Source: Euglena gracilis
Lineage: Eukaryota
DNA length: 64,000 bases
Assembly: GCA_039621445.1 (NCBI GenBank)
Contig: CP154954.1
Location: forward strand, 21,128,642 to 21,192,641
Direction: 5' to 3'
The notes below the pieces were generated by a model, which did not search any database, had not been told where the DNA came from, and saw nothing but the letters and a program-made list of their open reading frames with translations. Every line of letters starts with the position of its first letter. Position 1 is the stretch's first letter. Positions 2,928 through 9,116 of this stretch are shown one piece after another. Position numbers and translations under genes: made by a program.

Positions 2928-5900
2928 TCATTGCACTGGGGAGATCTTCTTGATATCGGATGCATGGCCCATCCACAAGCGAATGTGAGGCAACTATAGA
3001 ACAGGTGTGTGTGCGTGCAACGAATGGAACGTTAACACAGATTTGTTTTTTAAAATGTTTTTAGCTTGTCCATGTTGGGTGTTTCACAATCAATGTATGT
3101 GTATTATTGACAGCTGGGGGTTTGTTAGATGTATCAGGTGGTGATTGTATTTGTGTTGTGTGCATTTTCTTTGCGTTTGGGGCTGACCCACACCAGCACA
3201 CACACTTTCCAACCACGCCGAGTGCTTTGCAAACTACTGCCAGCTGGGCCCTGGCCCTTCACCTGCTGCAGGCGGAGGTTCTCCAGCATGAGGTCGGCGT
3301 CGTCCGGGCCGATCCGCAGGTCGTTCTGAATCTCGTGCAGGCTCTGCGTGCCGTCGAGGTGCGTCACCAGCACCCGCCAACTCCAGCGCCGAACTCCTCG
3401 GGAGGGGCACGGAGGGGCTAACGACGGGTGGCCTTTCCCTCACCCCAATGCAATGGGGGTGGCCAACAGGGGCAGCAGCCACGAATGCATATGGGCATGC
3501 CAGGGCTGCACGGGAAAGCCTGGTGGGGGGTCGACCCCCCCCAACCCATGAGGTGGGGGAGGGGGATGCCCCCCCCTCCCCGCCCACCAGGGCTTCCCAT
3601 ATTTCTGAGGGCGCCGGTGTTTAGGCCAAAAATTCCTTCGGTGCCGAAGGCGCCAAAGGAATTTCCCTTGTGCAGGTGCTGTGGTGGGGGGTCGAGTTGA
3701 TCGGACCCCCCCCACCAACCAGGATGGGGGTGGGGAGATCAACCCCCCCCACCCATGGAGTTGCCAGGATTCCCGTACAGCCCTGGGGCATGTGCAAAAC
3801 ATTGAAATACAGATCCATGAGGCACAGCCATCCACTTGGCCACACCCATGCATGAACGCCGCACACACACATAAACCCCCCCCAAATAACCTGGCGGGGT
3901 GCCAGGTTATTGGAACCAACTTTTGGCCCTGACCCCCCGCCAGGTTATTTGGGCCTTTTTTTTTCAGCGTAGTAAAGGAATTTTGCCTAAAAAGGACCCC
4001 GCCAAATTACTGGAACCATCTTTTTTGCCCCTCCCCCCACCAGGTTATTTGGGGGGGGGGGGGGGGGTTACACAAGCACACACGGACAAACAGACACGCC
4101 GTTGCCCCCCACCCCCGCACACAAATGCCACCGTGCACAATGTGAAAGAATTTGAATGTGAATGAATTGGGAATAAGTGTCCAGCGCCTTCAGGCATCCG
4201 GCTCTGGTTGACACGAAACACTGGCAAACTTCCCAGTGCCTGTGCAGGACAGAGCATGCATCCTGGAACAGCAAAGAATGGAGAGATTGCAGCTGAAATG
4301 GGCATTATCCAATATTGGTTGGTTGGGTTGGTGTGGTACATTATTGACGTTTAGGTTCAAACTGTCTGTGGGTATACACATTCACTCACACCCTTCTAAA
4401 GGAGAAACTCCTGGTAGACATCAGATGGGAACCTCTTTCATGTGGCCAATAGAAAGAATCTGTGGCCACCATCAGGACATCCCTCAAGGACCTCCACCGC
4501 CCTCCGGGTCCCAGCTCAGAGGGTGGAAAATTGGGGCTGGTTGGAAAAATTTGCCCCCCCCCCCCATGGGAGTGCCAGGGCTGAAACTAGACCCGTGTTC
4601 CTACGGGCGGCTGCAGTATTCAAGCCAGTTCAGGCACTACGTCAGCACCAGTACCATTTGTCATAACAGCCGGTGTGTGTCTCCCACCTGTTTGACATAC
4701 AAGAGCACCAGTCTCACCCTCTGCCCTCTTTGCGTCATTCGGTAAGTAATGTGCGTACCAAACCATCGGGAGTTACATCCTCTCAACAGTGGGGTGTCTA
4801 AGTTCATAAGCTGTCTTCCGTGTGTCGGGGTGCAGGTTTCCAGAAATTTCGTAAAATTTGCGCATTTGCGCAAATGCGCAAATTTCAAAGAAAAAACCCT
4901 TAAGTGCGAATCCGGCCGCCTAAGTGGATGGCAACAAATTTTTGGCTTTTGGAGATGTAAAATACGCCGAAAAATGGGCAAAAATGGGTTCAGAAAATGG
5001 CGCCAGGGCAAACTTTGGGTGAAAGCAATCTTTCTTGCATGATAGGAAGTTTTAGGGCAGTTTTCCAGTTTTGATTTTTCTGGACTCCGGGTCGACTCCC
5101 AGTCACGGAGCCTTATGACATCACACACCACAGACTACGTCAGCCAGCTATCACTCAACTGATGTGTGTTTGTGGGCGCATTTGCGCAAATAAACAAATT
5201 TATGTTTATGGGCGCATTTGCGCAAATAAACGCAAAACATTGAAGGTAGAAATGCATATTGGTGACGGAAACCGAAACGACACGTCAGAAATGAAAAAAA
5301 GATCTTCAACACATGATATTCAAACAGAAAGGTTTTGGACAATGATTTTATTTGTAAGTTGGTCAAATTAACGTGAAAGTGGCGAAATTACATTAAAAAA
5401 TAGTTTCCAACTGGGTCCTTTTAAGCCGAGGGTGCAAGAGAAATTTTTCCAAATATTTTCTTTGAACAATGATTGCATCATCGGCAGTCTGGTCATTTAA
5501 TGACTGACAGGGGAGTTGGGCCTTTAAATTGTCACTTTCCTCAGCCTGCCACAACACGGCACCATTCTCCTTCCAGCTAGAAAGCTACAAAGGCATGGCA
5601 CGCACACCTCCGCTGATGTGCCAGACGCTGCGCATCAGCAGCTCGAAATCGTCGTCGGCGGGCAGGCCAGCGCTGATGTCGGCGTAATAGTCGAGGAAAT
5701 CCGCCCACGTCACGGGGGCGTCGTCGGCCTTGTCCCACCCGGACACGAACTCCTGTAGCGCCTGGTGGGCAGGGGGCCAGAGATGTGGCACTACCACCAT
5801 CGGCTTGTCTGAAAGAAACCTTGGGATCTGCTTCCACCGAAACTGTCTGGGGGGGGGGGCATATTGAACTGAGGGAGGTGCCACACATTTGAAACCCCTA

Positions 5901-8900: not shown

Positions 8901-9116
8901 TTGGCAGATCTCGGCAATTCGTACTTATTCGTACTTATTCGTACTTATTCGTGTACGAATCAGTGGGAAACCCTGGTTGTCTACCTACCCAAAACTCAAA
9001 AAAAAAATGGGTTTTATTTTTCAACCATGATTCCCGTACAGCCCTGCCTGCACCCCCGCCTTGCCCCCCTTCCGCGTCACCAGCTCCCGGATCTGCTGCA
9101 GCAGTTTGTCCGCCTC
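2928..9116 (-). CDS. C-terminal calcyphosin-like EF-hand module (exons ~9050-9116, 7767-7840, 6777-6827, 6089-6307, 5608-5761, 4210-4239, 3257-3378, 2928-2957)
   Basis: Spliced: ADKLLQQIRELVTRKGGKAGVRGLTRVLRIMDDNGNRMLDKYELQNGLQTYGLALSSTQMDKVMAIMDADGSGQVSVEEFLYVLRGPIPEHRLRLIQQAY...HPEVVRREKTTAQALQEFVSGWD...FLDYYADISAGLPADDDFELLMRSVWHISGGTGKFASVSCRRVLVTHLDG...LRLQQVKDIKKISPVQ*. All junctions are in frame. Confidence 0.85.
3501..3785. mobile_element. hAT-like MITE (CAGGGCTGYACGGGAA family) nested inside intron 3379-4209
   Basis: TIR cagggctgcacgggaa / ttcccgtacagccctg. Flanks GGGCATGC/GGGCATGT (7/8 TSD). Confidence 0.85.
3874..4067. mobile_element. TA-flanked poly-C/poly-G-ended MITE (related copy ~9265-9442)
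   Basis: ta-aaccccccccaaataacctgg ... ccaggttatttggggggggggt-ta. Internal sequence is shared with the copy at 9265-9442. Confidence 0.6.
6352..6660. repeat. (GAT)n microsatellite in GT-AG intron 6308-6776
   Basis: Long GAT run with GAC/AAT interruptions. Confidence 0.97.
7846..9046. mobile_element. hAT-like element (CAGGGCTGTACGG family) forming nonconventional intron 7841-9049
   Basis: TIR cagggctgtacggaa / ttcccgtacagccctg. Flanks CCCGCACC/CCTGCACC (7/8). Removing 7841-9049 gives in-frame GV-R-GLTRVLRIMDD. Confidence 0.88.
8009..8975. mobile_element. Nested hAT deletion derivative with 7-bp TSD
   Basis: Perfect TIR CAGGGTTTCCCACTGATTCGTAC. GTTGTCT on both sides. Subterminal (ttcgtactta)n arrays. 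Minus-strand ERSFSLAGLIDVK (~8461-8499) resembles the hAT dimerisation motif. Confidence 0.85.

Follow-up and report, generated by a model that had tools for sequence, protein, structure and literature searches.

Nonconventional introns of euglenids are removed by a separate machinery, which is guided by the pairing of CAG with CTG at spacers of 3 and 5 nt (PMC12501133). In that study the E. gracilis code reads 5'-N3-CDG...CH'G-N5-6|R, with strict 3-nt and 5-nt spacers set by knock-ins and a preference for a purine at the start of the downstream exon; in E. agilis nonconventional introns make up 71.8% of introns. An origin of these introns from MITEs was hypothesised in 2014 (Milanowski et al. 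2014, PMC3935182), and in a 2025 discussion their origins "remain unclear" (Nomura et al. 2025, PMC12501133). In the consulted portions of the literature searched, we found no named transposon family for the MITE hypothesis, and the portions of PMC12501133 and PMC3935182 available to us hold no mention of spacers of 3 and 5 nt summing to the length of a target-site duplication. We describe here a case in a 64-kb window of E. gracilis DNA (the whole stretch that was analysed, 64,000 nucleotides). Intron 12 of a calcyphosin-like gene is best read as a hAT-like non-autonomous transposon lying in a coding exon and removed by a nonconventional route, not by GT-AG splicing, a reading to which we assign a probability of roughly 0.85.

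The coding part of the host gene (positions 2928-18135, minus strand) consists of 19 exons and 18 introns and yields a 561-aa product. The exon chain was placed via the transcript-derived protein EG_transcript_6694 (P0003), to which the spliced translation is identical at 558 of 561 residues; the protein comprises two calcyphosin-like EF-hand halves (Pfam EF-hand_7 at 2e-24). This near-identity makes the window almost certainly nuclear DNA of E. gracilis; protein names of the EG_transcript type occur in E. gracilis papers. Two further proteins were tried as sources of junctions in other genes and rejected: P0005 proved to be an unspliced genomic ORF, and P0006, an ortholog of 721 aa that belongs to a related species, mapped too loosely for junctions to be placed. 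One and the same transcript contains 11 conventional GT/GC-AG introns and seven nonconventional ones. The published N3/N5 code is met by six of the seven nonconventional introns, and the exon downstream opens with a purine in all seven. Their terminal duplexes have predicted energies of –21.2 to –52.4 kcal/mol, compared to –6.7 to –19.3 kcal/mol for the 11 conventional introns.

Nonconventional introns with ends starting CAGGGCTG border exon 12 (9050-9116, 67 nt) on either side. On its upstream side lies intron 11 (9117-9737, minus strand; AAG-CAG...CTG-GCACG|G), with a 3' arm that begins CAGGGCTGAATGG and an RNA joint 9116->9738 seen in 22 + 9 reads. On the other side, intron 12 (7841-9049, minus strand, 1209 nt; AGG-CAG...CTG-GGTGC|G) separates exon 12 from exon 13 (7767-7840, 74 nt) and splits the codon of Arg336 as C|GG. 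Exon 13 is followed by intron 13 (6828-7766, minus strand), a nonconventional intron of the CGG...CCG variant (ACC-CGG...CCG-AGGAT|G) with an RNA joint 6827->7767 in 21 + 2 reads. Further downstream, intron 17 (3379-4209, minus strand; AAC-CAG...CTG-GAGTT|G) has a single junction compatible with the protein and a terminal duplex of –33.1 kcal/mol.

Intron 12 is made up of a transposable element, here called E2 (7846-9046), plus 8 nt. A second element of the same family, E1 (3501-3785, 285 bp), lies inside intron 17, together with a MITE that ends in poly-C/G. The exact end sequence CAGGGCTGYACGG occurs four times in the window, as two inverted pairs at 3501-3513(+)/3773-3785(–) and 7846-7858(+)/9034-9046(–), and an inverted-repeat search recovers the same two pairs of arms (17 nt at 94% and 18 nt at 89%). 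The terminal inverted repeats match at 13 of 14 positions in both elements, and each is bordered by an 8-bp target-site duplication identical at seven of eight positions. For E1 these are GGGCATGC (3493-3500) and GGGCATGT (3786-3793); for E2 they are CCCGCACC (7838-7845), which forms the 3' copy GGTGC|GGG in the transcript, and CCTGCACC (9047-9054), which forms the 5' copy GGTGC|AGG. Once the nested element described below is removed, stretches of the interiors of E1 and E2 can be aligned, with a modest advantage for the reverse orientation (score 105.5 vs 83.5), and blastn finds 74.5% identity over 55 nt and, at the ends, 95.5% over 22 nt. The first-pass annotation had described an intronic copy at 3501-3785 and a second copy of the same family in an exon, where it forms an intron that splits an Arg codon of the calcyphosin domain; all of this holds. 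Two TIR/TSD copies of one family are thus confirmed. They are the only clear copies in the window, apart from fragments, and outside their tips they are about 75% alike. Judged from its 8-bp duplication and CAGGG ends only, the CAGGGCTGYACGG family appears to be hAT-like. Intron 11 was also considered as a member, but it has only the first 8 nt and AATGG in common with the family (local alignment scores 23 to 35).

The 1201 bp of E2 are not one unit, which corrects the earlier description. E2 is a composite of a 227-bp MITE (7846-8008 and 8983-9046) and a 967-bp element, N (8009-8975), which lies inside it. N has perfect 23-nt terminal inverted repeats, lies between two identical 7-bp copies of GTTGTCT (8002-8008 and 8976-8982), and belongs to a very high-copy family, as seen from the depth and the loose ends at 8009 and 8975. 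Its termini form a 23-bp stem when the whole intron is folded, and N itself fits the nonconventional code as AAC-CAG...CTG-AGACA|A. No joint for N alone is found among the RNA joints listed, nor is a back-joint, as would be expected of introns that leave as full-length circles after the conventional ones, at a depth too low to be decisive; the unique bins of the intron have zero RNA depth. The single ORF of N (8212-8541, minus strand) resembled a hAT dimerisation motif, but it gave no Pfam family at E up to 1 and no HMMER hit in 1.84 billion proteins, and a link to hAT proteins was rejected. No autonomous element is present within the window.

The duplications also bear on the direction in which the family has moved. 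Nonconventional introns reportedly leave the transcript as circular RNAs (PMC11282704), and the tips of the family are the splicing motifs themselves, so it could be imagined that a nonconventional intron became mobile through RNA, by way of a circle and reverse splicing or reverse transcription, and that the MITE copies descend from introns. We consider this improbable, albeit the best of the alternatives. The 8-bp duplications at both copies are marks of DNA cut-and-paste and would not be expected from reverse splicing, and the window holds many TIR elements of other families with 8-bp duplications: about 12 clean ones, of which 10 have CAG or CAT ends, picked by eye among 57 raw matches that were mostly of low complexity. 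In addition, E1 is intronic and carries a pyrimidine where the code favours a purine: on the transcribed strand, the sixth base of the duplication is C in E1 and G in the exonic E2. The prediction is thus that E1, taken alone, would be spliced poorly. This also qualifies the earlier suggestion that intron status depends only on where an element lands. That suggestion agrees with the removal of the exonic copy and the position of its sister within an intron, but "only" disregards the purine preference.

Removal of E2 from RNA is seen in an RNA joint 7840->9050, which skips 1209 nt with 6 nt common to both sides and is carried by nine reads of run X21 and three of run X24, from two studies. Across the left arm (7844-7947), RNA depth stays between 0 and 0.23. 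The read analysis covered positions 6700-9800, a stretch chosen to avoid a 300-bp (ATG)n array; E1 lies outside it. P0003 reads ...GGKAGVRGLTRV... across the E2 site, and V-R-G is found there both in P0003 and in P0004, an 86%-identical relative that is likewise transcript-derived. Seven registers, with the exon ending at 9056 to 9050, yield P0003, and each takes out 1209 nt. Since these seven positions are equivalent, RNA cannot fix the register of the cut. The ends of the registers are GG..CT, GG..TG, GT..GG, TG..GG, GC..GT, CA..TG and AG..GC, and none of these seven mRNA-compatible registers has GT-AG, GC-AG or AT-AC ends; on the plus strand the RNA joint has the ends GC..CT. The register proposed in the first-pass annotation, with the mRNA junction at 9050/7840, is the sole one that fits N3-CAG...CTG-N5|purine: in 9049..7841, CAG occupies +4 to +6, CTG occupies –8 to –6 and the first base of the next exon is a purine (G at 7840, minus strand). 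On the strength of the published code we infer that the cut is made at 9050|7840. The predicted junction thus agrees with the RNA reads, P0003 and the register analysis, and in this register the mismatched base of the duplication (9049) falls in the intron, also as predicted.

The 40-nt ends of intron 12 form a terminal duplex of –35.8 kcal/mol, and both the MFE and the centroid folds of the whole intron retain a 15-bp stem of the terminal inverted repeats. Intron 12 is a euglenid nonconventional intron. These data show how E2 is built, that it is removed at the RNA level and that it fits the published code. They leave very little room for a spliceosomal introner, that is, an element that provides or co-opts sites of the GT-AG type and depends on the ordinary spliceosome for its removal. 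Terminal inverted repeats, a target-site duplication and a split codon are all present, and the spliceosome works on this transcript, as the 11 conventional introns attest. Nevertheless, no register with GT-AG or GC-AG ends exists among the seven, in-frame GT..AG alternatives would add two or four residues that are absent from both protein and reads, and intron 12 fits the nonconventional code with strong pairing of its ends. In its usual GT-AG sense, the term introner that had been applied to this family does not hold.

Short inverted ends are universal in nonconventional introns, and short direct repeats are common at their junctions (PMC12501133), so the repeats around intron 12 might be fortuitous and the intron an old one of unrelated origin. 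This is hardly credible given that 13 to 16 nt are common to four ends and that a 7/8 flank adjoins every one of them. With up to two mismatches, CAGGGCTGYACGG has eight matches in the window, a count reached in none of 100 shuffles. A scan for elements with CAG..CTG ends, inverted repeats matching at 12 or more of 14 positions and 8-bp duplications matching at seven or more of eight found six elements in the window and none in any of 20 Markov shuffles used as control. The similarity extends to the interiors, and contigs from other loci carry E2-like arms with different interiors, a weak indication with short sides of 21 nt. Over the left arm, contig depths sum to about 190 times the depth of the unique flank, a figure that does not equal copy number. 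A scan of metagenomes with a 26-nt end pattern gave no matches. Reconstructed empty sites have long open frames, but so does this GC-rich DNA throughout, and the test does not discriminate.

In both DNA runs (X1 and X9) the insertion is present, contigs at 6700-7881 and 8991-9307 span both ends of the element at normal unique depth, and neither the joint 7840->9050 nor an empty site (uninterrupted GGTGCGGG) is found. That the joint stems from somatic excision of DNA in some cells, not from RNA processing, has next to no likelihood: class II elements can excise and a rare empty allele could be present, as contigs lose rare variants, but both ends are spanned with the joint in neither run, the joined form dominates in RNA (12 joint reads vs the near-zero left-arm depth) and excision by transposase seldom restores the exact target sequence.

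The preferred reading, a transposon in an exon taken out by the nonconventional route, suggests the following history. A non-autonomous class II element with CAGGG... ends would have inserted into an exon of the calcyphosin-like gene, making an 8-bp duplication, and this insertion of E2 probably created intron 12. In the pre-mRNA the two inverted repeats would pair, and the terminal CAG and CTG would supply the CDG and CH'G of the published code, the RNA being cut 3 nt ahead of CAG and 5 nt past CTG. Excision would take the element together with one copy of the duplication and restore the codons GTG CGG GGC. N, a very abundant TIR element, would later have entered the first element and enlarged the intron from 235 to 1209 nt, leaving splicing unharmed. 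The sister copy at 3501-3785 would have landed in another nonconventional intron, where its fate is presumably immaterial.

The CAG and CTG of the code are the tips of E2's own inverted repeats, and the spacers of 3 and 5 nt together match the 8-bp length of the duplication. Because 3 + 5 = 8, the cuts take the element and exactly one copy of the duplication, without a scar. Whether this extends to the whole class is a matter for speculation. We tentatively suggest, at somewhat less than even odds, that the nonconventional code mirrors, at the RNA level, one type of transposon terminus, with CAG/CTG as hAT-like tips and spacers that sum to the target-site duplication. The general claim of a MITE origin for nonconventional introns has one clear case behind it. 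In the five remaining N3/N5 introns of the nonconventional class in this gene, duplication-like repeats reach 1, 3, 3, 4 and 5 of 8, not above a control of mismatched pairs (mean 2.5, maximum 5). If the suggestion is true, each such MITE would be born as a scarless, orientation-independent intron, given a purine at position 6 of its duplication on the transcribed strand. In that case many nonconventional introns would be relics of MITE bursts, their duplications having decayed, and the machinery that removes them would have arisen as, or been derived from, a defence able to detect the hairpins of transposon ends in RNA.

New here are the identity of the CAG/CTG of the code with transposon tips, the sum of the spacers as the length of the duplication, the composite nature of E2 and the position of E1 within a nonconventional intron. 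Within 6 kb lie a defined end sequence, 8-bp duplications that are nearly intact, an exonic copy removed from RNA and a copy that is not at an intron boundary. The locus gives a specific example in favour of the transposon origin that has long been suspected for nonconventional introns, and it suggests why the spacers might measure 3 and 5 nt, in that together they remove one duplication. With the published chromosome-level assembly, the question of origin can now be tested directly across the genome, and the reading yields a prediction for knock-ins.

Several known systems resemble parts of this picture. In introners, as described in Micromonas, Aureococcus, fungi and dinoflagellates, a repeated element likewise becomes an intron in an exon, and in some families terminal inverted repeats and target-site duplications occur, the duplication making removal exact, as it does here (PMC11282704). 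Introners use the spliceosome at GT/GC-AG sites, whereas intron 12 has no such sites and follows the nonconventional route. The presence of the code-competent N inside a code-competent intron recalls twintrons and nested introns. With MITEs of the hAT superfamily the CAGGGCTGYACGG family shares an 8-bp duplication, short CAGGG inverted repeats and small non-coding copies, and we take its CAGGG ends to fit the hAT end motif YARNG; it departs from hAT elements in giving no transposase or hAT-domain match in the one ORF checked, that of N, and the repeat around N is 7 bp long. Maize Ds is, like E2, a hAT-type non-autonomous element in an exon that is taken out of RNA. Removal of Ds uses cryptic spliceosomal sites and is imprecise, whereas that of E2 is exact and follows a dedicated code. 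Splicing of Ds from transcripts was reported by Giroux et al. in 1994 (cited in PMC3935182). The closest likeness is to the euglenid nonconventional introns themselves (PMC12501133, PMC3935182): intron 12 agrees with them in its non GT-AG borders, the positions of CAG and CTG, the pairing of its ends, the purine in the next exon, a "slidable" direct-repeat junction and the presence of conventional introns in the same gene. It differs from those published in that it can be read as a member of a specific family, with near-intact duplications and a sister copy away from any intron boundary.

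The exact pattern CAGGGCTGYACGG occurs at four sites in the 64 kb, forming two inverted pairs (3501/3785 and 7846/9046), and a repeat search recovers the same inverted arms. The first pair bounds a 285-bp element, E1, flanked by the 8-bp direct repeats GGGCATGC and GGGCATGT (7/8 identity), and the second a 1201-bp element of the same family, E2, flanked by CCCGCACC and CCTGCACC (7/8). A scan for CAG...CTG ends, TIRs matching at ≥12/14 positions and 8-bp flanks at ≥7/8 returned six elements in the window, compared to none in every one of 20 Markov shuffles. The coordinates, TIRs and duplication counts of the first-pass annotation are therefore correct. 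One correction concerns E2, whose 1201 bp are composite: a 967-bp element, N (8009-8975), lies inside a 227-bp MITE. The 23-nt TIRs of N are perfect, as is the 7-bp repeat (GTTGTCT) on its two sides. Because its TIRs and flanks are perfect, the sequence suggests that N is younger than its host element. Once N is removed, the E2 core can be aligned to E1 both at its ends and over parts of the interior, slightly better in reverse orientation (score 105.5 versus 83.5); outside the tips E1 and E2 are only ~75% alike. The E2 insertion is present in both DNA runs. The ends of the family match the end motif of the hAT superfamily, and from this motif and the 8-bp duplication only we infer a hAT-like affiliation. 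Neither Pfam nor HMMER gives a match for the ORF in N.

E2 lies in intron 12 (7841-9049) of a minus-strand gene whose exon at 6089-6310 is 100% identical to P0003, a 561-aa transcript-derived protein (source name EG_transcript_6694). Names of this form also occur in E. gracilis papers. P0003 maps to 19 coding exons, from 18135 down to 2928, and the spliced translation, which contains EF-hand pairs, equals it at 558 of 561 residues. The three differences, P/L at 39 (17816-17818) and QT/KA at 227-228 (13963-13968), may represent allelic, strain or paralog variation. P0003 and its relative P0004 (86% identical to each other) read G-V-R-G-L-T across the E2 site, which requires the loss of 1209 nt, that is, E2 plus one copy of the duplication; seven registers of intron 12 are equivalent for the protein.

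Reads from two RNA runs of different studies (X21 and X24) and from two DNA runs were aligned to 6700-9800. An RNA joint from 7840 to 9050, which skips 1209 nt and whose position may shift by up to 6, is present in nine reads of X21 and three of X24. This joint is absent from all contigs of both DNA runs, and contigs from both bridge the E2 ends (6700-7881 and 8991-9307) with zero differences. Removal of intron 12 is therefore exact and occurs at the RNA level. RNA depth over the left arm of E2 is 0 to 0.23, introns 13 and 11 are confirmed by joints from 6827 to 7767 (21 + 2 reads) and from 9116 to 9738 (22 + 9 reads), and the RNA strand is minus according to X24, under the convention for stranded libraries.

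GT-AG, GC-AG or AT-AC ends are found in none of the seven registers of intron 12. Nomura et al. (2025) used E. gracilis knock-ins to define a code for nonconventional introns, 5'-N3-CDG ... CH'G-N5-6 | purine, in which exactly 3 nt are required as the 5' spacer and 5 nt are preferred as the 3' spacer (PMC12501133). The transcript sequence of intron 12, AGG-CAG...CTG-GGTGC|G, fits this code only in register 9049..7841, which is exactly the 9050/7840 junction that the first-pass annotation had predicted and that the RNA joint reads match. This register also bears out the proposed splitting of an Arg codon (Arg336, C|GG) and the placing of the duplication mismatch on the intron side, where 9049 opens the intron at a position that the code leaves free. 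The proposal that E2 is an introner survives as regards birth from a transposon, but not as regards a spliceosomal introner: with no canonical register and a fit to the euglenid code, intron 12 is a euglenid nonconventional intron.

In intron 12, the code's CAG and CTG are the exact tips of the E2 inverted repeats. The upstream duplication copy comprises five exon nucleotides plus N3, and the downstream copy N5 plus three exon nucleotides; since 3 + 5 = 8, the cuts take out E2 together with one complete duplication copy and restore the original target sequence, GGTGCGGG. An element that combines CAG...CTG tips with an 8-bp duplication would thus start life as a scarless nonconventional intron, and scarless removal would be expected in both orientations because the ends are symmetric. 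The code adds the condition that the sixth base of the duplication, read on the transcribed strand, should be a purine, as it becomes the first exon base. This base is G in E2 and C in E1, and C as first exon base failed in the published knock-ins (PMC12501133); E1 is thus predicted to be a poor substrate, although its terminal pairing is strong (-51.6 kcal/mol). The general claim of birth as a nonconventional intron is based on one clear case and on how common elements with an 8-bp TSD and CAG or CAT ends are in the window.

N itself reads AAC-CAG...CTG-AGACA|A, in full agreement with the code, and has a stem of 23 bp. Its insertion lengthened intron 12, from 235 to 1209 nt, and did no harm, consistent with the published result that altering 5 bp at the centre of a nonconventional intron leaves splicing unaffected (PMC12501133). 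No N-only joint is present among the RNA joints listed, at zero RNA depth over unique intron sequence. The N family is very abundant, with summed contig depth ~200-2900 times that of unique flanks in both DNA runs, and low-agreement loose ends fall precisely at its two borders (8009 and 8975). Transcripts of the family are present, nearly all reads of X24 being in one sense; the RNA reads show the letters of the family consensus (8415 G>A, for instance, in 6/6 X24 reads) and so derive from other copies. An RNA-only joint within N (8419-8699; 1 + 3 reads) skips 281 nt, has ends matching neither GT-AG nor the nonconventional code, and may reflect a deletion subfamily.

A GT-AG or GC-AG register is available in 11 of the 18 introns of the host gene and lacking in introns 4, 5, 11, 12, 13, 17 and 18. 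Pairing of the 40-nt intron ends separates the two sets completely (-21.2 to -52.4 kcal/mol for the seven non-canonical versus -6.7 to -19.3 for the 11 canonical). Six of the seven match the published code, the exception being intron 18, with ATG where CTG is expected; the first base after the intron is a purine in all seven. In the nonconventional introns other than intron 12, a duplication-like repeat is not above control. E1 lies, as first annotated, within an intron, namely intron 17 (3379-4209), which is nonconventional and code-fitting (AAC-CAG...CTG-GAGTT|G). Introns 17 (3874-4060) and 11 (9196-9507) share a poly-C/G-ended MITE family (92% over 36 nt), and summed contig depth at 9196-9507 is 25,000-119,000, compared to ~100 at unique flank. 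Conventional intron 14 contains an (ATG)n microsatellite of ~79 units (6354-6661).

Of 57 raw matches in the window, ~12 were recognized by eye as clean cases of a CAG- or CAT-ended element with an 8-bp TSD. Further TIR elements, with duplications of 7/8 or 8/8 and in most cases CAG or CAT tips, lie at 278-1497, 16788-17115 (in conventional intron 3 of the host gene), 43098-43373, 45382-46966, 60840-61117 and 61324-61713, and at 37089-37392 and 54476-54817, which form one family with ends CATGCTTG / CAGGCTTG; additional ones are at 33071-34658 and 55517-57299. Beside or inside the element at 33071-34658, diverged fragments (33570-33650 and 34688-34774) resemble both E-family arms, their identity to E1 being 93% (29 nt) and 75% (88 nt). 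Several of these elements lie in introns of a second minus-strand gene (58211 to ~44486), for an RsmB/NOP2/NSUN-type RNA cytosine methyltransferase, whose 721-aa ortholog P0006 matches Pfam PF01189 at 3.7e-33. A third minus-strand gene (24127-28382) has several high-scoring coding segments, three of which were tested and gave no Pfam match.

The words "intron" and "MITE" are both absent from the E. gracilis genome paper (PMC11252322). Neither a named transposon family for these introns nor a link between the spacers and duplication length was found in the full texts searched, which cover a minority of subscription journals. A MITE origin of nonconventional introns was proposed in 2014 (PMC3935182), was restated in a 2024 review that adds TSD-like repeats at the junctions (PMC11282704), has been raised for diplonemids too (PMC12621601), and is mentioned in the discussion of the 2025 PNAS study, where origins are said to remain unclear (PMC12501133). 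Intron 12 is a new, unusually clean case of a known class, and E2 offers a simple, testable account of the 3-nt and 5-nt spacers in the published splicing code.
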